Source of the DNA: an uncultured Porphyromonadaceae bacterium
GTDB lineage: Bacteria; Bacteroidota; Bacteroidia; Bacteroidales; UBA12481
Direction: 5' to 3'
Length of the DNA: 46,805 nucleotides
Assembly (NCBI GenBank): GCA_964444375.1
Contig: CAYUGX010000001.1
Span: 5,686-52,490 of the forward strand
The number at the start of each line of letters is the position of its first letter. The first letter of the stretch is position 1. A program made the position numbers and the translations under genes. This document shows, one piece after another, positions 1,846 through 25,212 of the stretch. Under the pieces are notes generated by a model that did not search any database, was not told the DNA's origin, and worked only from the letters and a program-made list of their open reading frames with translations.

Positions 1846-2580
1846 ACCACCATCCAGCTTTCGAAATTCTGATACATCTACTTCAATCGTTTGGCAACCT
1901 GCATCTTGAACCATCACAATGGTCTCTGGAAAACCATGCGGAATGATCACATGACCATTCACCCAGATGCAATTGGCCGCGTAGGCCTCTTCGTGGGGTA
2001 CTATTAGTTTTCGAAAAGCCGCAAAGGATGGATGGGTGGTTAACTCACCGGTAACGACAACCGTATCGTTTTCAATATACGATATACCGGTTTTCAGATG
2101 CAGCAAATCGTTCAATTCAATCATTGAGCCATTCATCCCTCGCTTATTGAGCTCCATGATGATCTGCTCTGCTCCGGCTTGATTCGTCCGTTCCGACAAG
2201 CCAATATAGAAATGCTTTCCCACCATCATGATATCTCCTGCCTCTATCGTTCCCGGATCGACAATCTCTACAATATCATCGTAATACATTTCTATAACCG
2301 GCCTGATTCCCTCAACTTCTCCCTGCCTCGAAAGTGCACCAGGACGTGTAATGAAGGCACAGACAGGAGTCAGCAGTGCCACATCTTCGACAAAACACGA
2401 ATCAGGATGCTGCTCATCCGCCTCCAGTTCCACAACTTCAAGTTGGCAGAATTTCAGCGCTTCCACATAGTTCTGGTGTTGTTTCAGGGCAAGTGAATAG
2501 TCAGGAGGACCAAGATTCGCTGTGGTCAACCCTTGGATCAGGCTTTTACCGGGTTTTCTTACGATGGCATGGCTAAACAT
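1819..2580 (-). CDS. N(G),N(G)-dimethylarginine dimethylaminohydrolase (DDAH; amidinotransferase fold)
   Basis: It is collinear with my recollection of Pseudomonas aeruginosa DDAH: MFSHAIVRKPGKSLIQGLT..., EAGDIMMVGKHFYIG, AYAANCIWVN, and the C-terminal DGGLSCLSLRF carrying the catalytic Cys. The longest ORF starts at 2595 (MNPTSMF...). The ATG at 2580 matches the homolog N-terminus. Its 3' end overlaps the permease by 27 nt (convergent). Confidence 0.9.
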   Translation of the reverse strand: MFSHAIVRKPGKSLIQGLTTANLGPPDYSLALKQHQNYVEALKFCQLEVVELEADEQHPDSCFVEDVALLTPVCAFITRPGALSRQGEVEGIRPVIEMYYDDIVEIVDPGTIEAGDIMMVGKHFYIGLSERTNQAGAEQIIMELNKRGMNGSMIELNDLLHLKTGISYIENDTVVVTGELTTHPSFAAFRKLIVPHEEAYAANCIWVNGHVIIPHGFPETIVMVQDAGCQTIEVDVSEFRKLDGGLSCLSLRF

Positions 2581-2621
2581 AGATGTCGGATTCAATCAAG
2601 GTTAAAAATAAAAGAAAAATG

Positions 2622-2652
2622 TTGCACAATGTGTTATATATTTCTAACTTTG
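2622..2652 (+). promoter_or_regulatory. Bacteroidota-type promoter (-33 TTG, -7 TAACTTTG) for the membrane-protein/XRE pair
   Basis: TAACTTTG at 2645-2652 matches TAnnTTTG. TTG at 2622-2624 lies 20 nt upstream. The ATG at 2680 is 27 nt downstream of the -7 box. Confidence 0.45.
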
Positions 2653-2679
2653 TGTTAGAATTAACTAACATATAATTAG

Positions 2680-3084
2680 ATGAAAATTAAAACAACCCTA
2701 TTTTTTGCCTTCCTCATGGTTCTTGCTATTGCCGCTCTAATCGTTTGGTTAACTGAATACAAAACAGATGTCGATACCAAAATCATTGTAATCATCGTAA
2801 TCGGAATAATTTCCCTGGTGATATCATTCTTGAGATGGCGAAAAAGAAAATCAGCCCAAAATAAGCAGCGGGTACATGATGACGAATTCGTGAAATGGGC
2901 CCGCCTTTATGGAGGCAATCAGGCCTTTTATTATTCCATGGCTCTTTGGCTCATCCTGTTTGCTTTTAATAGTCAAATTTCTGATCCGAAAACACTTCTA
3001 GGAATTGGTATTCTAGGATCAGCCGCTATGTATGGTATCTGTCAATGGTATTTTACTACAACAGCAGACTTTGATGAAAAATAG
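2680..3084 (+). CDS. small integral membrane protein (4 predicted TM segments), partner of the downstream XRE regulator
   Basis: 134 aa with hydrophobic stretches [49 protein letters not shown] and [15 protein letters not shown]. Its end overlaps the regulator start by 11 nt. Confidence 0.6.
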
Positions 3085-3262
3085 AATCAAAGAGCTCAGG
3101 GCAAAGCACCAATTAACACAGCAAGATTTGGCTGATCGTGTTGGTGTCAGAAGGGAAACAATCGTCTTTCTTGAAAAATCGAAGTACAACCCCTCTTTGC
3201 AACTGGCCTATGACATTGCCCAGGTGTTTGGACTGTCGATTGAAGAGGTGTTTGTTCTTTGA
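3074..3262 (+). CDS. XRE-family helix-turn-helix transcriptional regulator (62 aa)
   Basis: [60 protein letters not shown] is a canonical HTH_3 layout. I take the internal ATG at 3074 rather than the track start at 3032, which lies inside the upstream gene. Confidence 0.85.
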
Positions 3263-3301
3263 ATTAATTACATAATAAATTATGTAATTAATTATGTAAT
3301 T
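3262..3301. repeat. perfect 15-bp inverted repeat with a 2-nt spacer, plus a tandem extra copy of the right half-site
   Basis: aattaattacataat (3262-3276), aa, then attatgtaattaatt (3279-3293) are exact reverse complements. attatgtaatt recurs at 3291-3301. The repeat starts on the last base of the XRE stop codon and lies about 50-80 nt upstream of the -7 box of the next gene. Confidence 0.8.
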
Positions 3302-3319
3302 CATGCGATAAGATGTCGT

Positions 3320-3350
3320 TTTGCTACCCACGATATTATCCATAACTTTG
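3320..3350 (+). promoter_or_regulatory. Bacteroidota-type promoter (-33 TTTG, -7 TAACTTTG) for the 3376 gene
   Basis: TAACTTTG is at 3343-3350. TTTG at 3320-3323 leaves a 19-nt spacer. The ATG at 3376 is 25 nt downstream. Confidence 0.55.
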
Positions 3351-3375
3351 ATTATCATCAGCAAAAACCTTCATC

Positions 3376-4029
3376 ATGAAAACAACAGTAATTATAGTGA
3401 TAAGTCTGCTTTTGGGCGCTTTGGCATCTGCCCAGAACTATGCACAAAATGAACTCATATGTCCCTGTATGTTAGAATATGAATTTCCTAAAAGTATCCA
3501 AGACGGGAAGAACATTTTGCAAGCTTTCGGAGGCGTGCCGGTACTGCGCCTATCAAATGCCAAAATTGAGGGCAATAAATTGATCTGCCAATACGATACT
3601 GAGTTTGCCAAATATGTATTTGATGGTTTTGGTTTTGTCAAAGGTGGTGGTTCGATGGACGATATGACTGACATACCCTATGAATTAAACCTTACTTTAA
3701 AGGACGTGCATCTTCACAATTGGATAGTCTCGAGATCGACTGTCAAACTTCCGGCTTATCACCGTGGTTGTGTGGTGTATACACTTGACGCCTGTATGGA
3801 TGAACTTCACAATGCCTACAAAGGAGGCTTCTACAAATCTAAATACAAAGGAAAACGAATCGTGCTGTACCAAGCCTATACTGGTGAGGCCAGAATCAAT
3901 CAAAGCGGAACGGGGTTCATCTTGGCAAAAACCAAAACCGGCTTATATACACCAGCTAAAAACACGCAATCAATAAGCAATCCAACCGGTAAAAAGACTG
4001 GTCGCAAAGCAATCAAAAGGAAGAAATAG
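3376..4029 (+). CDS. secreted hypothetical protein with a Lys/Arg-rich C-terminal tail
   Basis: It has a signal peptide (MKTTVIIVISLLLGALASAQ), several Cys residues, and the tail NPTGKKTGRKAIKRKK. I recognise no family. Confidence 0.6.
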   Translation: MKTTVIIVISLLLGALASAQNYAQNELICPCMLEYEFPKSIQDGKNILQAFGGVPVLRLSNAKIEGNKLICQYDTEFAKYVFDGFGFVKGGGSMDDMTDIPYELNLTLKDVHLHNWIVSRSTVKLPAYHRGCVVYTLDACMDELHNAYKGGFYKSKYKGKRIVLYQAYTGEARINQSGTGFILAKTKTGLYTPAKNTQSISNPTGKKTGRKAIKRKK

Positions 4030-4122
4030 CCGTCGCTTCTGTGATAATCTCCTCAAAATGGCACTTTCTTCGAAAGCGACATCATTTTTCGAGAAGACAA
4101 TCACCTTCAATCACTTTTTCGT

Positions 4123-4188
4123 CTTCCCGATAAATCGGGATCTTCGCTTCGCTCTGACTCGCCTATCGCCTTTTGTCTTTCGTCTCTC
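4123..4188. repeat. direct repeat copy 1 (66 bp including a 7-bp insertion), containing the 14-nt palindrome cccgataaatcggg
   Basis: cttcccgataaatcgggatcttcgcttcgctctgactcgcc[tatcgcc]ttttgtctttcgtctctc. By my count 55 of 59 aligned positions are identical to 6086-6144. It abuts and overlaps the sulfatase stop codon (4187-4189). Confidence 0.85.
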
Positions 4189-6019
4189 ATCTTTCCGCAA
4201 AGTGTTCCACCATCCGGTTGACATACTCCGAATCGATTCGCCCTCCCACTGCTTTAATGTCTGGCAGCAGTTTTAGTTTATCGGTTTCGTCAAAATATTC
4301 TAGCATGTTGAAGGCCAACAGAACGACTTTTGGGTTGGTGTTTCTCAATCCTTCTTGGATGGCTTTCACCCCAAGGGATTGATTTCCGAATCTGTATAGT
4401 GCTTCTCCTGCAGCCAGTCGAACTTCGGGATCATCATCGCTTAAGCAGGTAGTGAGGGGCTCCATCAATGGGTTTTTTCCTCCCGGATACAGCTGACATG
4501 ATGTGGCAGCCCAGTATCTGATTAGAGCATGGGGATGAGTGAGTGCGTTGACGAGGGCATTCAAGTGTGTTTCATCTTCATCCAGGCGGCTATCCATGAG
4601 GGACAGAAAATCCGGAAGGGGATAATCATCCTGGTGGCTATAGGTATATACCGGTTGTTCTGCATTGATGTCGACCAGTTTTCCCTCGGGAATGAAACCG
4701 GCGTCATGCAGTTCAAGTATTCGATTATTCAGTTTGGCATGCATCGATTCAGCCCGGTCGAGGTAGTTTGGGTCACCGATGAGGTTCATAACCTCCCAGG
4801 GGTCTTTCTCCATATCATAAAGTTCAACCAGAGGCTTTTCGGTCCAAAAAGCACTTTGCACCGCATCCAATTCACCATTCAACCAGGCTTCTTCCCAGGT
4901 TTGCATACCGGTAGCCCGCCACAGATAACCAATGTGCTGCCCATAGGGTCGGTGTGGATAATAATTTACCTGATAGCGATAGCGCCCATCGGTTATCGCC
5001 CGCATGCAATCAATTCGCTCATCCATCCGGTTCCGAAACAGGTAAATCTCTTCCTGAGGCGCTTCAGCATACTCCCCCATAAACGCGCGCCCTTCCATGT
5101 ACTTAGGGGGCTCAATTCCAGCAATACTCAAAACGGTTGGTGCCAAATCAACAAAAGAAACCAAACGACCAGAGACCTGTTCTTTCCCGAATCCACCATT
5201 CCACCAATCCACCATTGCCTCAGGAACTTTGATGATGAGCGGTACCTGAGTCCCGCTGCGATGTATAAACCGCTTCGACCTCGGATAAACACCCCCATGA
5301 TCGCTGTAGTAAAAGACGATGGTACTGTCGTTCAAACCAAGATCATCCAGCTCGGCTAATACCTTTCCCACTTTACTGTCCATGTCAGTTATATTATCAT
5401 AGAGTTTGGCCATATCCTCCCGGATGCTTGGGTGATCAGGTACATAGGATGGCAACACCATTTTACCCGGATCATGGATCAACTCATCAGGATTATACTT
5501 GTGGACCTTGCTCTCATGGGTATCTGTGAAATTGAATATTGCAAAGAAAGGTTGACCAGGCTTCCTGTTTTTATAATGAGCCAGGCGAGAAGATTCATCC
5601 CATACTTGCCAGTCACCGTCAAAATTATAATCGGTTTTAGAGTTATTTGTGCAATAATATCCGGTTTCACGAAGAAAAACCGGATACGCTTTCCACTCTT
5701 CCGGAACCCGATATCGGCTTCTCATATTCATGGTTCCGGCCGATGAAGCATGCACACCATGCAAAATTGTAAAGCGGGCTGGTGCGCAAACAGGTGCATT
5801 CGCAAAAAACGAGGTAAAGCGTACCCCTTCTTTCGCGAGCTTGTCCAAATGCGGAGTGGTTGCCAGCGAATCCCCATAACAACCAATAAATGGAGAAATA
5901 TCTTCACAGGTAATCCAGAGAATGTTGGGGGGAAAGGATGTTTGTTTGGAATCCCCGCATGAGGCAAGCAATAATATAGAAATGAGACATAGGGTTGTTT
6001 TAATGGTCATAGTTTCCAA
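4187..6019 (-). CDS. sulfatase (formylglycine-dependent arylsulfatase family) lipoprotein with a C-terminal HEAT-like repeat tail
   Basis: It has a lipoprotein signal (ILLLASCGDS), the sulfatase signature CAPARFTILHG (C-x-P-x-R), and YYSDHGG. The last ~126 aa (PEVRLAAGEALYRFG, NPKVVLLAFNMLEYF) look like HEAT/PBS-lyase repeats. Confidence 0.9.
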   Translation of the reverse strand: METMTIKTTLCLISILLLASCGDSKQTSFPPNILWITCEDISPFIGCYGDSLATTPHLDKLAKEGVRFTSFFANAPVCAPARFTILHGVHASSAGTMNMRSRYRVPEEWKAYPVFLRETGYYCTNNSKTDYNFDGDWQVWDESSRLAHYKNRKPGQPFFAIFNFTDTHESKVHKYNPDELIHDPGKMVLPSYVPDHPSIREDMAKLYDNITDMDSKVGKVLAELDDLGLNDSTIVFYYSDHGGVYPRSKRFIHRSGTQVPLIIKVPEAMVDWWNGGFGKEQVSGRLVSFVDLAPTVLSIAGIEPPKYMEGRAFMGEYAEAPQEEIYLFRNRMDERIDCMRAITDGRYRYQVNYYPHRPYGQHIGYLWRATGMQTWEEAWLNGELDAVQSAFWTEKPLVELYDMEKDPWEVMNLIGDPNYLDRAESMHAKLNNRILELHDAGFIPEGKLVDINAEQPVYTYSHQDDYPLPDFLSLMDSRLDEDETHLNALVNALTHPHALIRYWAATSCQLYPGGKNPLMEPLTTCLSDDDPEVRLAAGEALYRFGNQSLGVKAIQEGLRNTNPKVVLLAFNMLEYFDETDKLKLLPDIKAVGGRIDSEYVNRMVEHFAER

Positions 6020-6250: not shown

Positions 6251-7228
6251 ATGAAGACAAGAATATTTATTCCCTTACTGATGTTGGCCTTTCTGGTTGC
6301 CGTTCCACAAGCTGAAGCACAGAACCGGAAAGAGCGCAAATTAAAGCGGGAAATGCGCAAGCTGGAGAAGCAGATGAAAAAGGTACAAGAGCTCAAAAGT
6401 GAAGAATTTGAGTTCATGAAGCAGTTTGAACTTAAAGAGTTGCACGAAGAACTTGAGCGAGCCCACGAGTTAAGCGAACTGGCAGAAGTCAGGGCTTTGC
6501 GTGAGCACGAACAGGCGATCAGAGAAGTTGAGCGAATTCATTCAAAAGAGCATCGAAAAGTTTTCGAAGAAGCCAGAAAAGCCCAGCAACTGGCCAGGGT
6601 TCATCAACGCGAAGCCATTGAGAAGGCCCGAAAAAGTCAGCGGAAGGCCATGGAACAGGCCAGGAAGCAAATTGAAAAACAGCGGGAGCACTTTGAAAAA
6701 TACCGTGAAGAATACCCCGATGAATTCGAATTTCCAGAATTTGATTTGCCTGAATTTGACTTTGAATTTGATTTTGAATTCCCAGAAATTGACCTGCCTG
6801 AACTTGAGCTGCACGAATTTTCCTTTCCGGAAATCGCAATTCCAGAGTACCATTTTGAATTTCCCGATGTATATAGTAAACTCGGAGATGTATATGAAGA
6901 TGCCAGAAATGAAAATACCCTGTTGATCAATAAAAAACTCGACAGTGAAAACATGGCCAAAGACTACACCTATACCGTTGCTGATGATGCCAATCAATTT
7001 GAGGTTAGTGTTAATGGATCTCTCGAAAAAGGAGAAGTCAAGGTAAGCATCGTCGGGCCTGATGGCACCGAATTTCAAGACATTGAATTGAGTCCGGCAG
7101 CCGACGTAAAGTGGAGCCACCGAGTGAAAATCGATGGAGAAGAAGCTGGTTTCACTGGAAAATGGACAATTAGCATGACGGCTGAAAATGCACTAGGACA
7201 TTGCAACGTACGCATGCGATCAAAATAA
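6251..7228 (+). CDS. secreted protein: charged coiled-coil region, acidic/aromatic FE-DF-P repeat, and a C-terminal beta-rich domain
   Basis: It has a signal peptide (LMLAFLVAVPQAEAQ). About 130 aa are E/K/R/Q-rich heptad-like sequence. Then comes DEFEFPEFDLPEFDFEFDFEFPEIDLPELELHEFSFPEIAIPEYHFEFP, followed by ~110 aa of mixed sequence. A strong terminator follows the gene. Confidence 0.7.
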   Translation: MKTRIFIPLLMLAFLVAVPQAEAQNRKERKLKREMRKLEKQMKKVQELKSEEFEFMKQFELKELHEELERAHELSELAEVRALREHEQAIREVERIHSKEHRKVFEEARKAQQLARVHQREAIEKARKSQRKAMEQARKQIEKQREHFEKYREEYPDEFEFPEFDLPEFDFEFDFEFPEIDLPELELHEFSFPEIAIPEYHFEFPDVYSKLGDVYEDARNENTLLINKKLDSENMAKDYTYTVADDANQFEVSVNGSLEKGEVKVSIVGPDGTEFQDIELSPAADVKWSHRVKIDGEEAGFTGKWTISMTAENALGHCNVRMRSK

Positions 7229-7333: not shown

Positions 7334-7954
7334 ATGATATGGATTCGAAAAACCATCTTGGGTGTAAGCCTATTCTGTTGCTTTGCCCTTACCGGCCAGG
7401 CCCAGAATTTTACTTTTACGCTCAACCAACCATCTTCATTGATCGTTGATGCTGGCCCCGACACTACCATTCTGAAGGGAAATAGCATCCGCTTGGGTGG
7501 AAATCCGACTGCCCTTGAAGGATACGGCAGCTATGTATATTCCTGGTCGCCTGTCACAGGCTTAGATGATCCCACAGCTGCCAATCCTATTGCCACTCCT
7601 CTTGAAGAAACGACTTATATTTTGACCGTGATTGATGATAATAATTGTCAACAGCAGGACGAAATCACTGTAGGGGTTGACGCAAGCGGAATTATTGAAT
7701 GGGATTTGGAAGAGTCGATCGCTATTTACCCAAATCCCAATCCTGGAATCCTCCACATCAGATTCATAAAGCCGGTACGATTACCTACTATTAAAATATA
7801 CTCGATGCTCGGTGAGCTTCTTTGGCAAAAGAAATTTCAAGGGCTTGGTTCAGGTCAGGTTGAAGTTGATTTGTCTGCTTATTCTACCGGACTGTACCTG
7901 ATTAGTGTCTCAGCAAATAACCAGCAAACCATTCGTAGAGTGTTATTGCTCTAA
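7334..7954 (+). CDS. T9SS C-terminal sorting domain-containing secreted protein
   Basis: It has a signal peptide (CCFALTGQAQ) and the motif VDAGPDTTILKGNSIRLGGNP...YSWSPVTGL...TYILTVIDDNNC, which is common in Bacteroidota surface proteins. The CTD reads IAIYPNPNPGILHIRF...GLYLISVSANNQQTIRRVLLL. Confidence 0.75.
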   Translation: MIWIRKTILGVSLFCCFALTGQAQNFTFTLNQPSSLIVDAGPDTTILKGNSIRLGGNPTALEGYGSYVYSWSPVTGLDDPTAANPIATPLEETTYILTVIDDNNCQQQDEITVGVDASGIIEWDLEESIAIYPNPNPGILHIRFIKPVRLPTIKIYSMLGELLWQKKFQGLGSGQVEVDLSAYSTGLYLISVSANNQQTIRRVLLL

Positions 7955-7960
7955 ACCACA

Positions 7961-10711
7961 ATGATCAAATTCAACAGACATCCATATCGAATTTGTTTGC
8001 TATGCAGTTTGCTACTGTTTATGGCCCTCGGCCTTCAGGCACAAGACCAGCGCTTGAAACAATATGGTAACAGCATAAAGGTTGTGGCCAACACTGCAGT
8101 TACCTTATACGCTGGTGATTACCGGGGCACATTGATGTGGCAAGAGTCGTACAACGGCCAATCCTGGGTAGAGATTAGTGGTCAAAACCGCGACAGTCTT
8201 CAAACAACTATTATTACTCAGGTCTTTTATCGAGTGGGTGTCAAAGAAGTAAACTGCGATTGGCTATTTGCCCCAGCAATTGAATATGAGTTGATCATAT
8301 TGCCAACCGTATTAACCAATTCTCCTGAGAATATCAGTAGTCGTTCGATTGAAATCAGAGGTCAGGTTACAGATCCAGGTAATGGATCGATCAGTAGTAG
8401 AGGATTCTGTTTAGATAGCCTGGTCAATCCTGACACCAGCAAGCAGCGAATCAATCTGGGATCCGGATCAGGTCACTTTAGTTCAGTTATTGGTTCACTT
8501 GAGCCGGGTACCGACTATTTTGTACGCGCCTTTGCCCAAAATGAGGCCGGATTGAGTTATGGGATCAGTCAAGCATTCACCACACTGGTTGAAGTTCCCC
8601 AACTTGAAACCCTCGATCCAGTTGCCATTAGCGATACGGTTATTCAAATTGGTGGCCAGATACACTCGAACGGAGGTGATCAAATAACAAGTAAGGGGAT
8701 TTGCTGGGCAAGCTCTCAAAATCCGGATACCAGCCAACAATACACTGCTGAAGGGGCTGGATCAAATTCTTTTATTTCAACGATTACGGGCTTATCACCG
8801 AATACACGGTATTATTTCAGGGCCTATGCCATCAATTCAGCCGGGATCAGCTATGGCAATTCGATCCAGGCCATCACGCAGATCGGATTGGCCAAGGTGA
8901 ACACACTTACCCCAACTGACCAAAGCACTAGCACCGTGATGGCAGGTGGCGAAATTACGCATACGGGCGGCGGATACATCAATGACAAAGGCTTATGCTG
9001 GGGGATTAGTTCTGATCCCACTTTGAGCGATTCAACAGCATCTCTGGGTCAGGGTAATGCTCCTTTTACTCTTCAAATTGAACACCTGGTACCCAACACT
9101 GAATATTTCATCCGAGCTTATGCCACCAATCAGGCAGGAGTGGCGTATGGACAAAATCAATCATTCACTACACGGGTTGATTTAGCCACAATACAAACTC
9201 TGGCTGCGACTGATGTTGGCCAGGATAGTGCAAAATTACATGCCTCTGTTGATTACGATGGATATGGTACACTCCTATTCAATGGATTCTGTTGGGATAC
9301 GGTAAGCAATCCGGATACGACAAAACAACACATTAAACTGGCTGGTCAATTAGGTCAATATAGCCAGGTCATTAGAGGATTATCAGCAAATACAAATTAT
9401 TTCTTCAGATCATTTACGGCCAATGAAGCCGGGCTGGTATATGGTGGTCAACAAAGTTTTACCACTTTGCCTGGCCCTCCTGTGTTAGGAGCAATTGACA
9501 GTCTCCACCTGACTGACCACAGCGTCATAATCCAATCAAGCGTAGTAAATACCAGTGGTTTAGTGGTTGATACAGCCGGATTTTGTTGGGCCCTGACCCC
9601 CATGCCTGATACCAGTGATCACCTATTCTTTGCATCATTGAATGCTGAGTTGCAATTCGAAGGGCTGTTAGATACCTTAAGTGCTAATACAAGCTATTAC
9701 ATCCGGGCCTTCGCAACAAACGCCGGTGGCATCAACTATTCTGAAGATTTTTCCATCACCACAAAAGAAACTGGATATCATGTTCTGCAAGCCAGTCTGG
9801 GCTGGCATGTTCGAAACAATTTCAGAGGTTGGAAAAATGTATTTCCACTTCATGGCAATTTGGGTAATGGGTATTCTGGAATAACCCTAAACTGGGACGA
9901 AGACATACTATATATTGTCGGGAATAATGCAAAAGCCGTATGGGCCGTTCATGCTCCGGGCAGTGACGAGTGGGATGAAACCAATCTGAATAGCAACCAC
10001 ATCAAGACCATCCCCTTAAATGGATACGTTGATCCAGAAGGTATTAACTATTTGGGAAATGGCTGGTTCATGTTGGCCGATGAGGGATTAAGAGAGGTCT
10101 CATTTGTTCAAATAACCTCAGAAACCACCCAGATAAACAAAAATGACGAAGGCCTGATTGTGGATCCTACCCCGCTGTTTCCCAGTTCTCATGGAGCTAA
10201 TTCAAATAGGCGATTGGAGGGTATAGCCTATGATTTCCACCACCAGTATATCTATGGGATTTGTGAAAAAGGAGTTGATGATCATCCCAGGTTGTACCGA
10301 TGGAAATGGAAATTCGATGAACAGGTAATCGATCCCACCTCTGGTGAAGAAGTCACCGATATATTTAATGGCCTTAGTGATCAATGGATTGAAGGCAGTG
10401 ACCTCTTTTATCACCCTTTATTGCAAAGATTGTATGTATTGAGTGGGTTCGACGATAAAATGGCTGAGTACTATTGTCCACATCCAGATACTACCGGCTA
10501 TGGACAATTTATCAGCCAACGACAACTACCCCGGAGCAACGGAACCACAGGGGACGTATTGGGCGATTGCGAAGGCATTTGTCTGTCACCTGACGGATTG
10601 ACCTTGTACCTGGTTTACGAGGACCGAAGCTTTGGATATGGTCCAGTTCCTTTCATCTGGTATTATCCAGAAAATAACCTGCCGGCCACATTGTTTCCGT
10701 TCTCGAGGTAA
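7961..10711 (+). CDS. large secreted protein: N-terminal Ig-like region, five 98-aa FN3-like repeats, and a C-terminal SdiA-regulated/YjiK-like beta-propeller-type domain
   Basis: It has a signal peptide (LLLFMALGLQAQ). The repeats carry G[FIL]CW...NPDTS...Y[FY][FI]RA[FY]A.N.AG..YG....FTT. The C-terminal region has RLEGIAYD and CEGICLSPDGLTLYLV, which I recall from the SdiA-regulated family. It starts 6 nt after the upstream gene, so co-transcription is likely. Confidence 0.8.
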   Translation: MIKFNRHPYRICLLCSLLLFMALGLQAQDQRLKQYGNSIKVVANTAVTLYAGDYRGTLMWQESYNGQSWVEISGQNRDSLQTTIITQVFYRVGVKEVNCDWLFAPAIEYELIILPTVLTNSPENISSRSIEIRGQVTDPGNGSISSRGFCLDSLVNPDTSKQRINLGSGSGHFSSVIGSLEPGTDYFVRAFAQNEAGLSYGISQAFTTLVEVPQLETLDPVAISDTVIQIGGQIHSNGGDQITSKGICWASSQNPDTSQQYTAEGAGSNSFISTITGLSPNTRYYFRAYAINSAGISYGNSIQAITQIGLAKVNTLTPTDQSTSTVMAGGEITHTGGGYINDKGLCWGISSDPTLSDSTASLGQGNAPFTLQIEHLVPNTEYFIRAYATNQAGVAYGQNQSFTTRVDLATIQTLAATDVGQDSAKLHASVDYDGYGTLLFNGFCWDTVSNPDTTKQHIKLAGQLGQYSQVIRGLSANTNYFFRSFTANEAGLVYGGQQSFTTLPGPPVLGAIDSLHLTDHSVIIQSSVVNTSGLVVDTAGFCWALTPMPDTSDHLFFASLNAELQFEGLLDTLSANTSYYIRAFATNAGGINYSEDFSITTKETGYHVLQASLGWHVRNNFRGWKNVFPLHGNLGNGYSGITLNWDEDILYIVGNNAKAVWAVHAPGSDEWDETNLNSNHIKTIPLNGYVDPEGINYLGNGWFMLADEGLREVSFVQITSETTQINKNDEGLIVDPTPLFPSSHGANSNRRLEGIAYDFHHQYIYGICEKGVDDHPRLYRWKWKFDEQVIDPTSGEEVTDIFNGLSDQWIEGSDLFYHPLLQRLYVLSGFDDKMAEYYCPHPDTTGYGQFISQRQLPRSNGTTGDVLGDCEGICLSPDGLTLYLVYEDRSFGYGPVPFIWYYPENNLPATLFPFSR
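8303..9766 (+). repeat. five tandem coding repeats with an exact 98-aa (294-nt) period
   Basis: The conserved Cys of the G-x-C-W motif falls at residues 150, 248, 346, 444 and 542 by manual count, which is exactly 98 aa apart each time. Confidence 0.85.
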
Positions 10712-10729
10712 GCACTAGTTATTGCCGAT

Positions 10730-10762
10730 GTACAATTCACCCCGTTGAACGTACAGTTCACC
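10730..10762 (+). promoter_or_regulatory. candidate LytTR-regulator binding site: two 12-bp direct repeats with a 21-bp period
   Basis: gtacaattcacc (10730-10741) and gtacagttcacc (10751-10762) are identical at 11 of 12 positions. The core 9-mers ACAATTCAC and ACAGTTCAC are separated by exactly 12 bp. ACAGTTCAC fits 8 of 9 positions of the LytTR consensus [TA][AC][CA]GTTN[AG][TG] as I recall it. Confidence 0.45.
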
Positions 10763-10794
10763 AGATTTCTCTTTTCACCCCTATTACCTGGGCA

Positions 10795-10802
10795 TACATT
10801 TG
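10795..10802 (+). promoter_or_regulatory. -7 box TACATTTG for the 10819-15585 operon, with no recognisable -33 element
   Basis: It is a perfect TAnnTTTG, 16 nt upstream of the ATG at 10819. The region where a -33 TTG is expected (about 10770-10777) reads tcttttca. Confidence 0.45.
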
Positions 10803-10818
10803 AACCAAAATTAGAATA

Positions 10819-11469
10819 ATGGTTCATCCGATAATGCTTTCGATACTTAGTTTCTTCTCGATATTCTCATTGCCATCAGATAGATCAACAAAGTGGGAGA
10901 CGGTTTTCATCCGGGAGGAGATTATCATCAAGGAGAGGTGGATTACAAATCTTACAGGTGAAAAGACTCGTGAGCGAAGAGCTGAGTTTTTGGTTGAAGC
11001 AAAGGCCAAAGTAGTCACAGAACTACTCAGGCAAGATCACTTTAACAAGTGCTGGATGGGAAATGTTGACCGATTTCATTCCTTTGGGAAATCATCACCC
11101 AACCAGTGGATCAGCTACACCGTATACGCCATTCCATGGCCGTTTAAGAAACAAGATTTGCTGTCTGAATACACCCTTAGCCAGGATCAATATGAGAAAA
11201 ACTACTACATCCAGGTCAAAGGACTTGACCAAACTCCAGCTCAATTACGGGCTCTCATTGGTGTGAATAGGAAATACAAGCGATTGAGTAATTATCGGGC
11301 AGAATGGCACATCAAAGAAACAGAGCAAGGCCGCTCACGAGTTGTATTTACCGCCAGTTCAACTGATCCTCCACCTTTTCCCCGCTGGATGATGGATCCA
11401 GTTTTGGTTCGCCTGTTTGCTGACAATTTCTCACGATTTAAGAATGAAATTGAAGGTCTGCAACCATGA
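10819..11469 (+). CDS. START/SRPBCC-like lipid-binding domain protein
   Basis: 216 aa. The segment ISYTVYAIPWPFKKQDLL resembles the START-domain PWP(v/l)s.RD segment. The N-terminus is hydrophobic. The stop overlaps the next start (ATGA). The family call is moderate. Confidence 0.6.
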   Translation: MVHPIMLSILSFFSIFSLPSDRSTKWETVFIREEIIIKERWITNLTGEKTRERRAEFLVEAKAKVVTELLRQDHFNKCWMGNVDRFHSFGKSSPNQWISYTVYAIPWPFKKQDLLSEYTLSQDQYEKNYYIQVKGLDQTPAQLRALIGVNRKYKRLSNYRAEWHIKETEQGRSRVVFTASSTDPPPFPRWMMDPVLVRLFADNFSRFKNEIEGLQP

Positions 11470-11927
11470 AAAAGATAATGACTTTTATAGCCAAACCGTA
11501 TCGCAAACTGTTGCAGGTAGAAGCTGATCCCAGGAAGGTTGCCGGTGGATTTGCCCTCGGTTCATTTATCGGGATGACTCCCTTTGTGGGCATGCAGATA
11601 TTGATTTCTGTCAGCATTGCAAGCCTGGCTAAATGGAATAAAATTGCCGCCGGCCTTGGGGTGTTCAATACTAACATGGCTACCGGTTTATTTGTATTCG
11701 GATTCAACTACTATCTGGGTAGTAAAATACTGGGGATTCAAAATGATTTCACGCTACCTGAGAAACTGAATATTAGTTTTATAGGACAGGTATTCGAGGC
11801 TGGTTTTGAAGTATTTGCCGCTTTACTTATTGGTGGAATTATTACAGGGATTCCCTTTGCACTCACCGTTTATTACTTACTATATCGCCTTTTAAAAAAC
11901 AGAAATCTCAAAAGAAATGAAGCATAA
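11466..11927 (+). CDS. DUF2062-family membrane protein
   Basis: PRKVAGGFALGSFIGMTPFVGMQILISV is the characteristic DUF2062 opening. Further TM segments follow. It overlaps both neighbours. Confidence 0.7.
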   Translation: MKKIMTFIAKPYRKLLQVEADPRKVAGGFALGSFIGMTPFVGMQILISVSIASLAKWNKIAAGLGVFNTNMATGLFVFGFNYYLGSKILGIQNDFTLPEKLNISFIGQVFEAGFEVFAALLIGGIITGIPFALTVYYLLYRLLKNRNLKRNEA

Positions 11928-12729
11928 GCATTCATTCGCGCTCATCACTGGTGCCAGCCAGGGATTGGGAAAAGCCTTCTCAAAAGAGCTGGCCGAACAG
12001 GGGTATAATCTTTTGTTATCAGCTTTACCAGGCGAGGGATTGGAAGCCTGGGCACGCTTACTTTGCGAACAATACCAGATTACGGCGCTGTTGCATGAAA
12101 CAGATCTGGCTCAAAGCTCGGCTCAGATTGATCTGGCTAACTGGGCATCGGCTTACCCTGTTCAGGTCGTGATCAATAATGCCGGAATTGGAGGAACTAT
12201 GCCTTATGAATCGGCCACTACAGACTACTTGAATCGCATTATTCAGGTCAATGTGACTGCTCCGGCAATTTTGATCAACCGATTGTTGCCTGTTTTGAAA
12301 GAGCATGAACAGGCCTACGTGCTTAATGTATCGAGCATGGCAGCTTTTAGTCCGATGGCCTACAAAACAGTATATCCAGCCTCAAAAGCTTTCGTTTGGT
12401 CTTTCAGCCGGGGTTTGTATCAGGAATTGCGGGAGCAAGGAATTTTTGTTGGAGTCGTTCATCCCGGACCCATCAAGACGAATCCGGACGTTTGCCGACG
12501 AATTGAAAAACAAAAACTATTCGGGAGACTAGGTCTGGTCAGTCCAGACCGACTGGCAAAGGTGGCTATCCGTCAGTTGTTCAATCAGGATCCCTTGCTA
12601 ATACCTGGAATTCTCAACAAGGTCAATTGGGCGATGATGAAGATAGTGCCGATCTGGATTCGGATGGGAGTATTGGCCAAAGTGGTTCAACGAGAGATTG
12701 ACGAACCAAAAGAATACATTTTATCTTAA
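11917..12729 (+). CDS. classical short-chain dehydrogenase/reductase (SDR)
   Basis: ALITGASQGLGKAF is the TGxxxGxG motif, NNAG is present, and YPASK is the catalytic YxxxK. Confidence 0.85.
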   Translation: MKHKHSFALITGASQGLGKAFSKELAEQGYNLLLSALPGEGLEAWARLLCEQYQITALLHETDLAQSSAQIDLANWASAYPVQVVINNAGIGGTMPYESATTDYLNRIIQVNVTAPAILINRLLPVLKEHEQAYVLNVSSMAAFSPMAYKTVYPASKAFVWSFSRGLYQELREQGIFVGVVHPGPIKTNPDVCRRIEKQKLFGRLGLVSPDRLAKVAIRQLFNQDPLLIPGILNKVNWAMMKIVPIWIRMGVLAKVVQREIDEPKEYILS

Positions 12730-12739
12730 AAAACACAGT

Positions 12740-13756
12740 ATGAAAGTACTTGTCACAGGTGCCAATGGATTTTTGGGTGCCAATATAGTTGCCATGTTGA
12801 ACCAACATGGTGTTTCAGTTCGGGCATTCATGCGATCCTCTGCCAATCAACTGGGACTAACAGGATGTACTTTTGAGCCCTGTTATGGTGACATTACAAA
12901 GGTTGAGGATGTGAATAAAGCGCTTGTTGGATGTGACTATGTGATCCACGCTGCAGCTTGTACCGGACCCAGCCCAAATGATTATAATCACTACTTCCCT
13001 GTGAATGTAATGGGAACTCGCCACCTTCTAGCAGCTTGTCAACAGGCATCATGCAAACGCCTTGTGTTCATCAGCTCGGCCAACACCATTGGTTTTGGCA
13101 ATCTGCTGCATCCCGGTCATGAAGAATTACCATTGAGTGAACCCTTTCGGTCATCCGGTTATGCTTTGACCAAATTAGAGGCCGAATTTAACATCCAGGC
13201 GGCAGTTGATCGAGGTCAGCTGGATGCGGTTATTCTCAATCCCGCCTTTATGATTGGTTCACGTGATCACAAGCCTAGCTCAGGTCGATTGCTGCTTTCG
13301 ATGGCCAGGTCAAATCCAGTTCTCCTTCCCCCTGGTGGAAAAAGCTTTGTCCACGTCAACGATGTGGCATTAGCCAGTTTATCTGCCTTGCATCGGGGAG
13401 AAGCTGGGAAGTGCTATTTGTTGGCTAACCAAAATCTGAGTTATCACGATTTCTTCAACCAGGTGTATCAAATTCGTGGTAAGTCTCGTCAGGCTTGGAT
13501 ACTCTCTGAAGGATTCACAAAAATGCTGGGTGCCCTGGGATCCGGATTTGAGCATTTAGGCTTCAAACAAGACTTGAACTCAATTAATGCCAATCTTCTA
13601 TGTATTAAAAATTATTATTCAGGTCAACTGGCGAGTTCTACATTCGGATTTCAATATACACCAATCAGTCAAGCGATTGAGGAAGCTATAGCATGGTTTT
13701 CAAATAATGGATACCTTAACAGTCAAAAAACACCTCAACATCTTCGTTATGCCTAA
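12740..13756 (+). CDS. extended-SDR NAD(P)-dependent reductase/epimerase (3-beta-HSD / dihydroflavonol-reductase-like)
   Basis: MKVLVTGANGFLGANIV is the Rossmann motif and YALTK is YxxxK. I start at the ATG at 12740 rather than the track start at 12698, which overlaps the SDR gene. Confidence 0.85.
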   Translation: MKVLVTGANGFLGANIVAMLNQHGVSVRAFMRSSANQLGLTGCTFEPCYGDITKVEDVNKALVGCDYVIHAAACTGPSPNDYNHYFPVNVMGTRHLLAACQQASCKRLVFISSANTIGFGNLLHPGHEELPLSEPFRSSGYALTKLEAEFNIQAAVDRGQLDAVILNPAFMIGSRDHKPSSGRLLLSMARSNPVLLPPGGKSFVHVNDVALASLSALHRGEAGKCYLLANQNLSYHDFFNQVYQIRGKSRQAWILSEGFTKMLGALGSGFEHLGFKQDLNSINANLLCIKNYYSGQLASSTFGFQYTPISQAIEEAIAWFSNNGYLNSQKTPQHLRYA

Positions 13757-14855
13757 GCGAAATTACTTCTTTGTTAGACTGTTGGTTGTTTTTGTGGTTC
13801 ATCTGATTTTCAAGGTCGTTGATTTGTCATTTACCTCTGCTTTGGAACCCAGTCTTCGTTCTCTTGGGTTTTCAATATTCTTTATGATCTATTGGATGGG
13901 AGTATGGGAAGTGGCCAGATGGATCTATCGTAAACAGATGGGAAATTGGATTGGTAAACCCAAACAATATGGAAAACTGACCCTCGTATCTACCGTCATA
14001 TTGATTTTTGCCGTTCTCACCATTCTGATTTACAATTATTGGTACCTCCTATCTGATTATTTCATTTTCGGTAATACCTGGAATGATATTGCAGTGCTCA
14101 ATCCAGAGATCATGGGTGATTTCACCATCTTAAAGAGTTTGCGGATCAATCCTGAATTGTTTTACGGTCTGTTTTTGTTCATTATCCTGGCTTATGGAGT
14201 GATAATTTTCATTGAATTGTTCAATCATGTGAAAGAAATGGAGGTCAGCACGGCTCTTTTGCAACACGAAAACACCCATGCCAAATATCAGGCTTTGAAG
14301 AATCAGATTGATCCACATTTTTTTTTCAATAGTCTGAGTGTATTATCATCCTTAGTTCATGAAGATCCTGGCTTATCCTCTACCTACATCAGTCACTTAT
14401 CAAAACTGTATCGCAACATACTTGAAAGCGATACCGATCGATTGATTACCCTGCAAGAAGAACTGGCCATCCTTGAATCATACACTTTTCTGCTTCGAAT
14501 CCGTTTCCATGAAGCTTTTCAATTACACATTGAATTGAGTGAGGCCAGTAAAAATCAAGTAAGGGTTGTTCCACATGTGATGCAAATGCTCATTGAAAAT
14601 GCCCTGAAGCACAATTCCTTTTCAGCTGATGAACCCATCGATATTTACATCACTGAAAACTCTGATTCACTGATTGTTCGAAACGCACTGCGTGCAAAAC
14701 GCCTTCTGCAGCGAAGCACTCATGTGGGATTGAGTAACATTAAGAACCGCTACGCAATTGCCAGCGAATCTGAAGTTGAGGTAAGCACAGAAAATGGAGA
14801 ATTTATCGTTAAACTGCCTAAAATTACCCATGAATATTCTGATAATAGAAGATGA
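13749..14855 (+). CDS. LytS/YehU-type membrane sensor histidine kinase
   Basis: It has four N-terminal TM segments. NQIDPHFFFNSLSVLSSLV is the His_kinase domain phospho-acceptor region and MLIENALKHN is the N-box. The ATG at 13749 overlaps the previous stop by 8 nt. An alternative start is at 13707. Confidence 0.85.
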   Translation: MPKRNYFFVRLLVVFVVHLIFKVVDLSFTSALEPSLRSLGFSIFFMIYWMGVWEVARWIYRKQMGNWIGKPKQYGKLTLVSTVILIFAVLTILIYNYWYLLSDYFIFGNTWNDIAVLNPEIMGDFTILKSLRINPELFYGLFLFIILAYGVIIFIELFNHVKEMEVSTALLQHENTHAKYQALKNQIDPHFFFNSLSVLSSLVHEDPGLSSTYISHLSKLYRNILESDTDRLITLQEELAILESYTFLLRIRFHEAFQLHIELSEASKNQVRVVPHVMQMLIENALKHNSFSADEPIDIYITENSDSLIVRNALRAKRLLQRSTHVGLSNIKNRYAIASESEVEVSTENGEFIVKLPKITHEYSDNRR

Positions 14856-15585
14856 AAAGCGAACAGCTGATCAATTAAAAAGGTTGGTTATTCAGTTTGA
14901 TCCTCAATTCAAAGTGTTTGGACCTCTTGATTCTGTTGCGCGCGCAAAAGAATGGTTTACATCCCCTCCTGAGCTTATTGACTTGATCTTCTTAGATATT
15001 ATGCTGGCTGATGGTACATCATTCGAACTATTCGAAAGTATTAGCATTCAAATACCGGTCATTTTCATTACCGCGTACGATGAATATGCACTCCAGGCCT
15101 TCAAAGTTAATGCCGTCGATTACCTGCTGAAACCGGTTGACTACGAAGAGCTATCGCAAGCACTTAACAAGCTTGACCAAATGAAGCGCACACTTGGGCA
15201 TCACAATCATCATTGGATCAAATCATTACTCCATGGCAATGCACCTCTATATAAGAAAAGATTCCTGGTCAAATCAGGCGATTTGATTCAGTATATACTG
15301 GTGGATGACATTGGGTATTTCGAATACGACGAAGGATTGGTCTTTGCACATCTGCTGGATGGCAAACGTGTAATTATTGAGCACAGCCTGGATGATTTAG
15401 GTGAGCTCTTGGATCCGGCTCATTTTTTCAGAATAAACCGTAAAACAATTGTACACATAAAAGCCATCCGTAAAATACACCCCTATTTCAACCGCAGGCT
15501 ATCCGTCTACCTTGAGCCGGCCAATTACAATGCCACAGTAAGCCGTGAACGAGTGCAGCACTTCAAAGAATGGCTGGATCAGTAA
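14830..15585 (+). CDS. LytTR-family response regulator
   Basis: The receiver domain reads MNILIIEDE...LIFLDIMLADG...ITAYDEYALQAF. The C-terminal LytTR domain reads FFRINRKTIVHIKAIRKI. It overlaps the kinase gene by 26 nt. Confidence 0.9.
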   Translation: MNILIIEDEKRTADQLKRLVIQFDPQFKVFGPLDSVARAKEWFTSPPELIDLIFLDIMLADGTSFELFESISIQIPVIFITAYDEYALQAFKVNAVDYLLKPVDYEELSQALNKLDQMKRTLGHHNHHWIKSLLHGNAPLYKKRFLVKSGDLIQYILVDDIGYFEYDEGLVFAHLLDGKRVIIEHSLDDLGELLDPAHFFRINRKTIVHIKAIRKIHPYFNRRLSVYLEPANYNATVSRERVQHFKEWLDQ

Positions 15586-18425: not shown

Positions 18426-19856
18426 ATGGAATCTACTGAATTTACTGCGGCCTGGCTTAAAAACTATCAAACTGCACCTTCGCAACTTAGCAAAATATCG
18501 AATGTAAATGGCTTAATATCTGCCTTCAACGCGAATATTGATGCTGTTATCAAGGTATCCGGCAGCATGATAGAATCGTTGATTGCTGAACACAATCTCT
18601 CTGTTGACGCCATCCTTTCTCCTGGAGAACGCAAAATCGAATCTTCAGAAGATGCCATCCGCGGTTTAGTTCATTGCTTCTCCGGTGGGATTGCTGAAGA
18701 ATGGTTAATCAGAGACAGGTTGGTATTTGAATGGTTACATACCCATGTGGGTTATGACAAACTCCAAATGGGTGGTCAGGGCGGCATTGTGGCCAACGTG
18801 ATGGCTGTCTGCGGCGTTCAATCTGTATATGTGCATTGTGCAGCTATACCCAAAGAGCAAGCCGGGCTCTTCCTGGATCTAGAGAATCTCAAAACCACTG
18901 ACCATGAAGGACATTTGGGTAAAGCCCACACTACACATCGCGAAGATGATATCCCCCTGATACACTGGATTATCGAGTTTGATAAAGGCGATCAGATAAG
19001 GTTGGCTGACCAGGTGATAAAATGCCCCAAGTCAAATCGTTTTATTGCCACCTACGATCCTTTGAATTTCAGATTGGCCATTGATCCCTATTTTGCCCAT
19101 GAGATGGCAAAACCAGAAGTCAAACTGGATTATGTTGTATTATCTGGTTTTCAGATGTTGCAAGAAACCCTGGCGGATGGTGAAACTGGTGCTGAACGAA
19201 TAGACCGAGCCATTCGTGTGATCAACCGCTGGAAAGAATGCCATCCTGATGCCATCCTGCATCTTGAGATGGCCTCAACCCAAGACCAGGCAATGCGGAA
19301 ATACTTGCTTGATACTCTGGCACAGAAGGTTGACAGCCTGGGTTTTAACGAGAGAGAATTGATTGATCTGCTCGAAGTAATGGGTGAGACAGAACTCGCC
19401 GAAGCCTGTGATGCATCGACAGATGCCGTTCACCTTTTCCAGGGTATGCAGAAGCTGAGAGCCTATACCCGTTGCCCGAGGGTACAGTTACACATGTTTG
19501 GCCTGTACCTGACTCTGCAAGACACAGATTTTGTTATTACTGCCGAACAAAACAGAAATGGGATGCAATTGGCGGCGGTTATTGCTGCTGCCAAAGCCGG
19601 AACGGGCTCAATTCATGATAAAGCCGTTTTACTTTGGGCGAAAGACCGTGCTGTTTCCAAACAAGGACTAAACGAAATGGTTGCATTGGATACCCTCCTG
19701 GGTGGTTCTGGTGGAGGTGATTTTCTTAGCACCGGGATTGCCCAGATTGAGGCAACCACGGTCATTGCCGTGCCCAGCATTCTCATTGATCAACCCGTAA
19801 CTTTGGTGGGCATGGGCGACACCATTTCATCAATTTCCCTGGTTGGTGCTCAATAA
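18426..19856 (+). CDS. ADP-dependent sugar kinase family protein (archaeal ADP-glucokinase/ADP-phosphofructokinase type, ribokinase superfamily)
   Basis: All family signatures I remember are present in the correct order: AFNANIDAV (NxNxD), QMGGQGGIVANVMA, HLEMAS (HxE), GFNERELIDL (NExE) and the C-terminal VGMGDTISS (GxGDxxS). There is no signal peptide. Confidence 0.8.
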   Translation: MESTEFTAAWLKNYQTAPSQLSKISNVNGLISAFNANIDAVIKVSGSMIESLIAEHNLSVDAILSPGERKIESSEDAIRGLVHCFSGGIAEEWLIRDRLVFEWLHTHVGYDKLQMGGQGGIVANVMAVCGVQSVYVHCAAIPKEQAGLFLDLENLKTTDHEGHLGKAHTTHREDDIPLIHWIIEFDKGDQIRLADQVIKCPKSNRFIATYDPLNFRLAIDPYFAHEMAKPEVKLDYVVLSGFQMLQETLADGETGAERIDRAIRVINRWKECHPDAILHLEMASTQDQAMRKYLLDTLAQKVDSLGFNERELIDLLEVMGETELAEACDASTDAVHLFQGMQKLRAYTRCPRVQLHMFGLYLTLQDTDFVITAEQNRNGMQLAAVIAAAKAGTGSIHDKAVLLWAKDRAVSKQGLNEMVALDTLLGGSGGGDFLSTGIAQIEATTVIAVPSILIDQPVTLVGMGDTISSISLVGAQ

Positions 19857-25060: not shown

Positions 25061-25212
25061 AACTGTACGCTTAGTAAGCTGGATGAGACAAGGGTGCTTT
25101 GCTCTGAACAAGTTACAACAGAAAGACGACACAAAAACACCAACATTACAGCCTGGTGCCAGTTGTTTGAGAGGTGATGCATTCTTTTTCATAAGTGTGG
25201 GATTACACTCAC

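Follow-up and report, generated by a model that had tools for sequence, protein, structure and literature searches.

Conserved direct repeats upstream of a START-fold/DUF2062 operon as the probable operator of its own LytTR response regulator in Bacteroidota

Introduction

LytTR regulators such as AgrA, AlgR, ComE and PlnC/D bind direct repeats of the consensus [TA][AC][CA]GTTN[AG][TG], 12-13 bp apart, and activate promoters with poor upstream elements. They are among the most numerous response regulators of Bacteroidota. In a literature search we found no LytTR regulon of this phylum with a defined operator, a negative that is not proof of absence; a study of Flavobacterium johnsoniae stated the role of its mutated LytTR regulator as unknown. 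Here we analyse a pair of 9-bp direct repeats in front of a six-gene operon that encodes a membrane histidine kinase and a REC-LytTR response regulator. The operon lies in a 46.8-kb stretch of contig CAYUGX010000001.1 from an uncultured Porphyromonadaceae bacterium, and this whole stretch is referred to as the window. We propose that the repeats probably serve as the operator through which the regulator activates its own operon.

Several described systems are comparable. In the LytTR regulatory systems (LRS) of Streptococcus mutans, the operators are pairs of 9-bp direct repeats set 12 bp (11-13) apart that mediate positive autoregulation; they are positioned 4-11 bp, typically 10 bp, 5' of the -35 element, and the repeat sequences diverge between systems while their length, spacing and position are kept (PMC6193735). 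At suboptimal core promoters, AgrA binds as a dimer to a pair of imperfect 9-bp direct repeats whose spacer measures 12-13 bp, and one AgrA-bound promoter drives the operon of AgrA and its kinase (PMC4227749). The LytTR domains of ComE lie in tandem, as suits a pair of direct repeats (PMC4005675). Promoters of Bacteroidota have the consensus -33 TTTG and -7 TAnnTTTG (PMC7366714, PMC6847099). In F. johnsoniae the -7 element, TAnnTTTG, spans T-12 to G-5, G is almost never found at its variable positions, and the -33 motif is weak even among the promoters of this species (PMC6847099).

Results and discussion

A repeat pair upstream of the operon

Upstream of the operon, two 12-mers on the + strand, GTACAATTCACC at 10730-10741 (distal) and GTACAGTTCACC at 10751-10762 (proximal), share 11 of 12 positions and have a spacing of 21 bp (for 12-mers, spacing is the start-to-start distance). 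Their 9-bp cores, ACAATTCAC at 10732-10740 and ACAGTTCAC at 10753-10761, match each other at 8 of 9 positions and are separated by a spacer of exactly 12 bp (10741-10752). A -7 element of the Bacteroidota primary sigma factor, TACATTTG (10795-10802, + strand), begins 33 nt beyond the end of the proximal 12-mer and fits TAnnTTTG / TAHHTTTG perfectly; the first ATG is at 10819. The -33 region, CTTTTC at 10771-10776 on the same strand, begins 9 bp past the proximal core and is degenerate: TTG is absent, with CTTT at 10771-10774, and neither CTTT nor TTTC is the TTTG element. The repeats and their cores, the -7 element, the missing TTG and the ATG had been listed in the initial annotation, and recomputation returned the same coordinates and letters.

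Because the upstream gene stops at 10711, the site is intergenic, within a region of 107 bp. Since the -7 element of F. johnsoniae runs from T-12 to G-5, the transcription start of the window promoter is predicted near 10807 (+ strand, +/- a few nt), which would leave a leader of about 12 nt. Relative to this predicted start, the distal core occupies about -75 to -67 and the proximal core about -54 to -46, with centres near -71 and -50. Four marine metagenome DNA runs contain the window sequence, and no RNA runs containing it were found.

Two minor features were seen in the same region. The octamer TTCACCCC at 10736-10743 recurs as a third copy at 10774-10781, which is 17 bp past the proximal core, out of phase and just 3' of the -33 position; this copy could be a weak half-site or could have arisen by chance, and the orthologues carry TTCATTG about 6 bp upstream of the equivalent position. 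An inverted repeat, TGAACCAAAATT / AATAATGGTTCA (10801-10826), may form a hairpin that would fall in the predicted 12-nt leader and the first codons, with ATG 10819 in its 3' arm. The orthologous leaders are A-rich, and no obvious counterpart of this hairpin was seen in them.

Conservation of the repeats across promoters

Employing contig look-ups and scans of collections of metagenomes and metagenome-assembled genomes (MAGs), we recovered related cassettes and compared the window promoter with six others (loci L001, L002, L003, L004, L019 and L017), whose START proteins are 29-46% and whose regulators are 40-67% identical to those of the window. The seven promoters were aligned without gaps, with the first base of TAnnTTT[GA] as the sole anchor. 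Counted from the -7 box, the proximal 9-mer begins at -42 in every one of the seven, and the second 9-mer begins at -63 in six of them and at -62 in L017, so that the start-to-start distance is 20-21 bp and the spacer 11-12 bp. A third 9-mer is found at -83 or -84 in L001, L004, L019 and L017. From distal to proximal, the sites are ACAATTCAC and ACAGTTCAC in the window; ACAGGTCAA, CCAATTCAA and CCAAACCCC in L004; ACAACTCAG and CCAACTCCC in L002; ACAATACAG and CCAACTCCC in L003; ACAATCAAA, CCAATTCAA and CCAATTCCC in L001; CCGAATCAA, CCAATTCAA and CCAGTTCCC in L019; and ACAGTTCAA, TCAGTTCAT and ACAGCTCAT in L017. The consensus of the repeats over the seven promoters is MCARYTCMN. Thus the proposal that such repeats also precede the orthologous operons was borne out, with in-phase 9-bp repeats in 6/6 other promoters of intact cassettes.

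Conservation is confined to the sites. In a five-promoter alignment, mean pairwise identity was 0.76 for the distal repeat, 0.73 for the proximal repeat and 0.76 for the -7 box, as against 0.39 for the unconserved spacer, 0.28 for the upstream sequence and 0.31 for positions -20 to -1. Outside the sites, most pairs of promoters are at random-level identity (0.18-0.42). L002 and L003 are a related pair, as are L001 and L019, so the promoters represent about five independent lineages, the window included. The repeats are very probably a functional conserved cis-element.

The core promoter is also recognizable throughout. The -7 box is kept as TA..TTT[GA] in 7/7 promoters. A -33 TTG is present in 5/6 orthologues (ATTG or GTTG at the equivalents of 10771-10774), and in L017 a TTG lies 3 bp upstream; its lack is thus specific to the window among the seven. 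Apart from L003, the orthologues (five of six) carry a G at variable positions of the -7 box. With no -33 TTG in the window and a disfavoured G in most orthologous -7 boxes, these promoters look activator-dependent.

Compared with the AgrA-type consensus, the 8/9 match of ACAGTTCAC noted in the initial annotation is correct (ACAATTCAC matches at 7/9), and its significance stands only in part, because the orthologous sites diverge: those of L017 match at 8, 9 and 8 of 9 positions, those of L001-L004 and L019 at 3-7 of 9. The 8/9 match of the window is therefore partly fortuitous, and it is the architecture that is conserved.

Chance expectation and specificity

Across the window, the two 12-mers are the sole pair with at least 11/12 matches at a spacing of 21, and repeat finding also returned them. 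First-order Markov shuffles gave 0.12 such pairs per window per spacing. By itself the pair is only moderately unusual, suggestive but not compelling, as a multi-megabase genome would contain some by chance. We also examined a degenerate IUPAC pattern, MCAAHHCM-N13-MCAAHHCM with one mismatch allowed, which occurred four times in the window against 2.1 expected; at this chance frequency it is unspecific and unusable alone as a genome-wide probe, and it was dropped. The site is judged to be more than chance because its sequence, phase and position are conserved upstream of orthologous operons.

To quantify this, the window's own 9-mer was used as a probe (ACARTTCAC twice at 21 bp, scored out of 18). 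The upstream regions of L001-L004 scored 13-14/18, with a background per 130-bp window of 0.017 for scores of at least 13 and 0.0055 for scores of at least 14; L019 scored 14/18 (background 0.0068) and the distant L017 scored 15/18 (background 0.0015). The joint probability of these scores is far under 1e-6. With leave-one-locus-out matrices, the promoter site ranked first in L001, L002 and L003, and in L004 it ranked second, after a pair overlapping it that includes the third repeat. A matrix built without the window placed the window site second among 280,656 positions and spacings. A five-locus matrix ranked the L019 promoter first, at 22.8 bits versus 12.6 for the best unrelated match; the G-rich sites of L017 were not ranked by this matrix. 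The initial annotation had raised the possibility that 9+12+9 arrangements occur at chance frequency throughout the genome. The ranks of first or second in each locus show that high-scoring dimers are not scattered over the sequences scanned.

These data bear on the reading that the repeat is a functionless chance duplication or a short tandem slip. An 11/12 pair at one spacing, expected about 0.12 times per 47 kb, would arise in some copies per genome by chance, and the window holds the degenerate pattern no more often than chance allows. Against this, the sequence, the 20-21-bp phase and the exact distance to the -7 box are kept in six other promoters whose surroundings are randomized, and the probe scores and leave-one-out ranks point the same way. 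The comparative data effectively refute such a chance origin, which we regard as hardly credible.

Negative controls gave low probe scores: 10/18 for the START-DUF2062 loci L023 and L024, which lack the kinase/regulator pair, 11/18 for the TetR-DUF2062 locus L014 and 9/18 for the SDR (short-chain dehydrogenase/reductase) promoter of L010, a related system of Prolixibacteraceae type. The motif was absent from L014-L016 (TetR-DUF2062), whose contigs stop after DUF2062, and from L009, which has a 52%-identical regulator in an unrelated context. The motif appears to be specific to the START-DUF2062 cassettes.

The operon and its products

As described in the initial annotation, the operon (10819-15585, + strand) comprises six genes and ends in those for a PF06580 kinase and a REC-LytTR regulator. 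The genes are tightly packed and overlapping, with a 10-bp gap at one junction, and no terminator-like site was reported at the junctions; they are likely to form one transcript. A convergent M14 peptidase gene lies 3' of the operon.

The regulator, gene 6 (14830-15585, + strand), matches Pfam LytTR at 70 bits (cut-off 22.6) and Response_reg at 54. Its model has a pLDDT of 87, and in Foldseek searches the best structural match was full-length ComE (4cbv); the LytTR domain matched 3d6w with a TMt of 0.87 and the AgrA-DNA complexes 4xqj and 3bs1 with a TMt of 0.72-0.76. A sequence search against the PDB returned receiver domains only, and the LytTR domain was confirmed through its fold. Across 21 homologues there is no variation in the phosphoacceptor pocket (acidic residues E7, D8 and D56, together with K101). 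Gene 6 encodes a bona fide REC-LytTR protein.

The kinase, gene 5 (13707-14855, + strand; alternative start 13749), is a membrane histidine kinase with a PF06580 domain (79 bits) and, by hydropathy, 3-4 N-terminal transmembrane segments. Besides PF06580, it has no Pfam domain even at E<=1, neither 5TMR-LYT nor GAF. A PF06580 kinase paired with a REC-LytTR regulator belongs to the LytS/LytR-type class, and the label LytS given in the initial annotation proved too specific, as these sensor domains are lacking. Against NCBIfam, gene 6 scored 87.5 bits with NF010684 LytR (cut-off 375) and 76.5 bits with NF008677 BtsR (cut-off 246). Because the sensor domains are missing and the equivalog cut-offs are widely missed, the pair is a two-component system of the PF06580/LytTR class and not an orthologue of LytS/LytR or BtsS/BtsR.

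Gene 1 (10819-11469, + strand) encodes a 216-aa protein of the START/SRPBCC fold with a hydrophobic N-terminus. The AlphaFold model (pLDDT 76, pTM 0.74) shows a helix-grip fold with a long C-terminal helix, and Foldseek matched it with a probability of 1.0 to many START domains (TM 0.55-0.74; 3qsz, TMt 0.73). No Pfam or NCBIfam model matched at E<=0.001, Polyketide_cyc2 alone reaching 19 bits versus a cut-off of 27.4. The START label of the initial annotation thus holds for the fold and lacks a Pfam or curated sequence model behind it. Gene 2 (11466-11927, + strand), which adjoins gene 1 in all related loci, encodes a DUF2062 membrane protein with hydrophobic segments (PF09835, 107 bits).

The two enzymes are encoded by genes 3 and 4 on the + strand. 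Gene 3 (11917-12729) is a classical SDR (Pfam adh_short, 132 bits), all of whose NCBIfam matches are under the equivalog cut-offs. Gene 4 (12698-13756; likely start ATG 12740) is an extended SDR of the epimerase/dehydratase or 3-beta-hydroxysteroid dehydrogenase (3-beta-HSD)-like type (Pfam Epimerase, 3Beta_HSD). It resembles HpnA and SdmB, with 197 bits to TIGR03466 HpnA and 157 bits to NF052578, both under cut-off. Given a START fold and an HpnA/3-beta-HSD-like reductase, one may reasonably guess that the ligand or substrate is hydrophobic or lipid-like.

Proposed regulation of the operon

The site has the features of a LytTR operator: 9-bp direct repeats, a spacer of 12 bp (11-13 in described operators), a position 9 bp before the -33 element (4-11 bp before the -35 in described operators), and a LytTR gene in the operon. 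The repeats co-occur with the kinase/regulator pair, and the cassette carries them amid differing neighbours: an Fn3/SdiA-regulated gene in the window and L004, polymerase IV in L001, LysE in L002, Peptidase_C10 in L019 and AraC in L017. The initial annotation had suggested that the 14830-15585 regulator controls the operon from the repeats. Orthologue conservation and co-occurrence support this suggestion, in which binding and activation are inferred. Judged on comparative evidence of this kind, the repeats are probably the operator of the cognate LytTR regulator and mediate positive autoregulation of the operon.

In the proposed mechanism, the membrane kinase (13707-14855) would phosphorylate the REC-LytTR regulator, which would then dimerize. 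Arranged head-to-tail, two LytTR domains would sit on ACAATTCAC and ACAGTTCAC, which lie 21 bp apart on one helical face, and at promoters with three repeats the regulator may be bound as a trimer. Placed 9 bp 5' of a weak -33 region, the regulator could help RNA polymerase with the primary sigma factor to use TACATTTG. Transcription of the six genes, that of the regulator included, would rise, giving positive autoregulation together with induction of the START-fold protein, DUF2062 protein, SDR and reductase.

Several observations weigh against this proposal. Only five independent lineages with a cassette promoter are available, and the degenerate pattern is not enriched in the window. A better-scoring dimer exists in the window at 37225-37253 on the - strand (CAAACTCAC + CCAATTCAG, spacing 20, 20 bits); it lies antisense inside a TsaD-family (tsaB-like) gene (37061-37771) and was rejected as a further site, since about one such match is expected at this score. 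The other window matches in the full-matrix scan reached 14.6 bits at most. In L010-L012, the matrix, the probe and a self-repeat scan found no repeats, despite a 51%-identical regulator. L022 has a lone GTACAATCCAG at -83 and no significant pair (12/18); its regulator is frameshifted, on a contig of 8x coverage. Finally, the stretch from the stop codon of the upstream gene (10711) to the repeats showed no terminator, so read-through may contribute to expression of the operon.

A conserved operator could be bound by a different protein, either another LytTR regulator or an unrelated factor that recognizes direct repeats, with the operon's own regulator acting elsewhere. LytTR regulators are very numerous in Bacteroidota (7,793 homologues at E<=1e-30 among 8,000 candidates scored), and cross-regulation by a paralogue is conceivable; in L017 a second LytTR system, a 7TMR-DISM kinase and a LytTR regulator (532-3315, also present in L018), is encoded about 4 kb 5' of the cassette. 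Both facts count against the operon's own regulator as the binding protein. This second pair is a possible source of cross-talk. However, the window contains neither a second LytTR regulator nor a similar kinase, the repeats move with the cassette into varied contexts and are missing from START-DUF2062 pairs without the kinase and regulator, and the 9+12+9 geometry is of LytTR type, unlike that of OmpR- or NarL-type regulators. We consider control by another protein unlikely.

The cognate regulator might instead repress or modulate the promoter. Negative autoregulation by LytTR proteins has a precedent at the Pln promoters, where PlnD is described as a repressor acting through the repeats that PlnC also binds (PMC2714321). 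The perfect -7 box of the window would also allow appreciable basal activity. On the other side, the sites are wholly 5' of the -33 region, ending 9 bp before it and clear of the promoter core, which is the position of activators in LRS, Agr and Com promoters, and the promoter elements are suboptimal in the window (-33) and in most orthologues (-7). Repression is accordingly less in keeping with the layout than activation by the cognate regulator, and we hold it to be improbable.

The region might also act at the RNA level, as a leader or riboswitch or as a terminator of the upstream 916-aa gene, for it lies between the stop at 10711 and the start at 10819 and a hairpin is possible over the start codon (10801-10826). 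We rejected this reading: no Rfam match was found at E<=1, the folding energy does not differ from that of shuffled sequences (z = -0.81), and 10712-10818 contains no terminator-like site. In addition, the upstream neighbours vary among loci, and the repeats are direct rather than inverted and lie 5' of the predicted transcription start. The chance that the region is an RNA element or terminator is negligible.

Comparison with known LytTR systems

Like AgrA at agr P2/P3 of Staphylococcus aureus, the regulator of the window is a REC-LytTR protein whose putative target is the operon of the regulator and its kinase, with 9-bp direct repeats; its LytTR domain superposes on the AgrA-DNA complexes, and ACAGTTCAC is close to the AgrA-type consensus. 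Unlike the agr system, it belongs to a Bacteroidota host, where the promoter is of the -33/-7 and not the -35/-10 type. Its partner kinase is of the PF06580 family and not AgrC (HPK10), and a peptide pheromone, AgrB and AgrD are all absent. Over the clade, the consensus MCARYTCMN differs from that of AgrA in that A is commoner than G at position 4 and the 3' end is C-rich. Several orthologues have three repeats, and the proximal repeat is centred at about -50, not about -60.

Compared with ComE of Streptococcus pneumoniae (comCDE/comAB), the locus shares tandem 9-bp direct repeats, a REC-LytTR regulator and, as proposed, positive autoregulation of its own operon. The ComE box, which we take to be aCAnTTcaG, resembles ACAATTCAC, ACAACTCAG and ACAATACAG. 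The window has no competence pheromone system, and its promoter type, kinase family and lipid-binding/oxidoreductase targets differ from those of ComE.

The window resembles the HdrRM and BrsRM LRS of S. mutans in its 12-bp spacer and in the position of its proximal repeat, which ends 9 bp before the -33 position (typically 10 bp before the -35 in the LRS). LRS regulators lack a receiver and are controlled by a membrane inhibitor, whereas the window encodes a kinase and a receiver-LytTR protein. With a complete receiver and a kinase, the system is not an LRS and is LRS-like only in its autoregulatory operator. The PF06580 phosphoacceptor domain of the kinase is shared with LytS/LytR, BtsS/BtsR (YehU/YehT) and YpdA/YpdB; LytR and BtsR are the best NCBIfam models of the regulator, both under cut-off, and its receiver is closest to S. 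aureus LytR (6m8o). Unlike those of LytS, BtsS and YpdA systems, the putative targets are not holin-like or pyruvate-transporter genes, and they lie in the regulator's own operon rather than in a separate one.

The locus offers a phylogenetically footprinted operator, MCARYTCMN in two or three copies with a 20-21-bp phase and the proximal copy at -42, and suggests that the classical geometry of LytTR activators carries over to the unusual -33/-7 promoters of Bacteroidota. The contact between a LytTR dimer and RNA polymerase with the primary sigma factor, the signal of the PF06580 kinase and the role of the START-fold/DUF2062 pair can be tested through it. Because the regulatory design is a textbook one, the gain is an experimental entry point and not a new principle. 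The START-fold/DUF2062 cassette is previously undescribed.

Related loci and modularity of the cassette

Close relatives of gene 1 are few. A DUF2062 homologue from Sinomicrobium (P0147) could not be traced to a locus, and no cultured model organism was confirmed. For the regulator, eight orthologue clusters were found at 64-67% identity, with the next drop to 52%. The order START-DUF2062-SDR-HpnA-like reductase-PF06580 kinase-REC-LytTR is the same in L001, L002, L004 and L017/L018; L007, L008 and L005 duplicate L001, L002 and L004, respectively. L004 is the MAG 'Bacteroidetes bacterium SI037_bin1', a GTDB representative, with a gene 1 product 46% identical to that of the window. L017/L018 are distant (regulator 40%, START protein 29% identical), and the short contig L003 spans the promoter and gene 1. 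A single 344-aa fusion (P0003) is called for gene 1 and the DUF2062 gene in L001. L017 and L018 come from genomes of 6.7 and 4.3 Mb; in L017 an SDR gene and an AraC regulator gene lie between the second LytTR system and the cassette.

Shorter variants were also recovered. L019-L021 carry the cassette without the HpnA-like reductase. L022, the 8x long-read contig with the frameshifted regulator, has four genes and lacks both oxidoreductases. L023 and L024 have START-DUF2062 alone, beside an RND efflux operon. As the reductase is missing in L019 and both enzymes in L022, the enzymes are dispensable to the module: its conserved core is START-DUF2062-kinase-regulator, and the two oxidoreductases are optional.

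In L010-L012 (the Prolixibacteraceae MAG DAONHV010000049 and relatives), the regulator of a kinase/LytTR pair is 51% identical to that of the window, and the pair is followed on its 3' side by an SDR and a reductase (44% identical to those of the window), then by DUF2279 and a second SDR, an order unlike that of the window. This linkage indicates that the association of the regulator family with the enzymes is older than the six-gene order. The 160-bp spacer between regulator and SDR contains a GC-rich hairpin and no phased repeats.

The composition of the cassette allows a further reading, in which it would signal by itself through a hydrophobic, lipid-like molecule, as a closed loop with positive feedback through the repeats. 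The compound would be made or modified by the SDR and the HpnA/3-beta-HSD-like reductase; the START-fold protein, secreted, and the membrane protein DUF2062 would carry or export it, the sensor-less, intramembrane-type kinase would detect it, and the LytTR regulator would close the loop. If true, Bacteroidota would have their own equivalent of the LytTR quorum sensing of Gram-positive bacteria, with a lipid replacing the peptide. A kinase without an extracytoplasmic domain, the lipid binding of START domains and the autoregulatory design of the operon are compatible with such a loop, and the variants that lack the reductase (L019) or both enzymes (L022) speak against it. We consider the loop a long shot.

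Neighbouring genes

The gene immediately 5' of the repeats (window 7961-10711) encodes a protein of 916 aa in which Fn3-like modules are repeated and the C-terminus is an SdiA-regulated/phytase-like beta-propeller domain. In L004, a 1110-aa equivalent (2483-5815) with nearly identical C-terminal residues is encoded directly 5' of the cassette. Farther upstream, window 6251-7228 encodes a 325-aa protein with no Pfam match, a signal-like N-terminus, a long Lys/Glu/Arg-rich helix and an unusual acidic-aromatic repeat, EFEFPEFDLPEFDFEFDFEFPEIDLPELELHEF.

The product of window 18426-19856 is homologous over its full length to ADP-specific phosphofructokinase/glucokinase (PF04587, 246 bits), a family best known from archaea and uncommon on chromosomes of marine Bacteroidota. 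Genes for type IX secretion cargo proteins with Por_Secre_tail domains form a cluster at 21551-29227 (- strand), together with 7334-7954, which includes a 1213-aa Peptidase_C10/LRR protein. In L019, a Peptidase_C10 protein of the type IX secretion system is encoded immediately 5' of the cassette.

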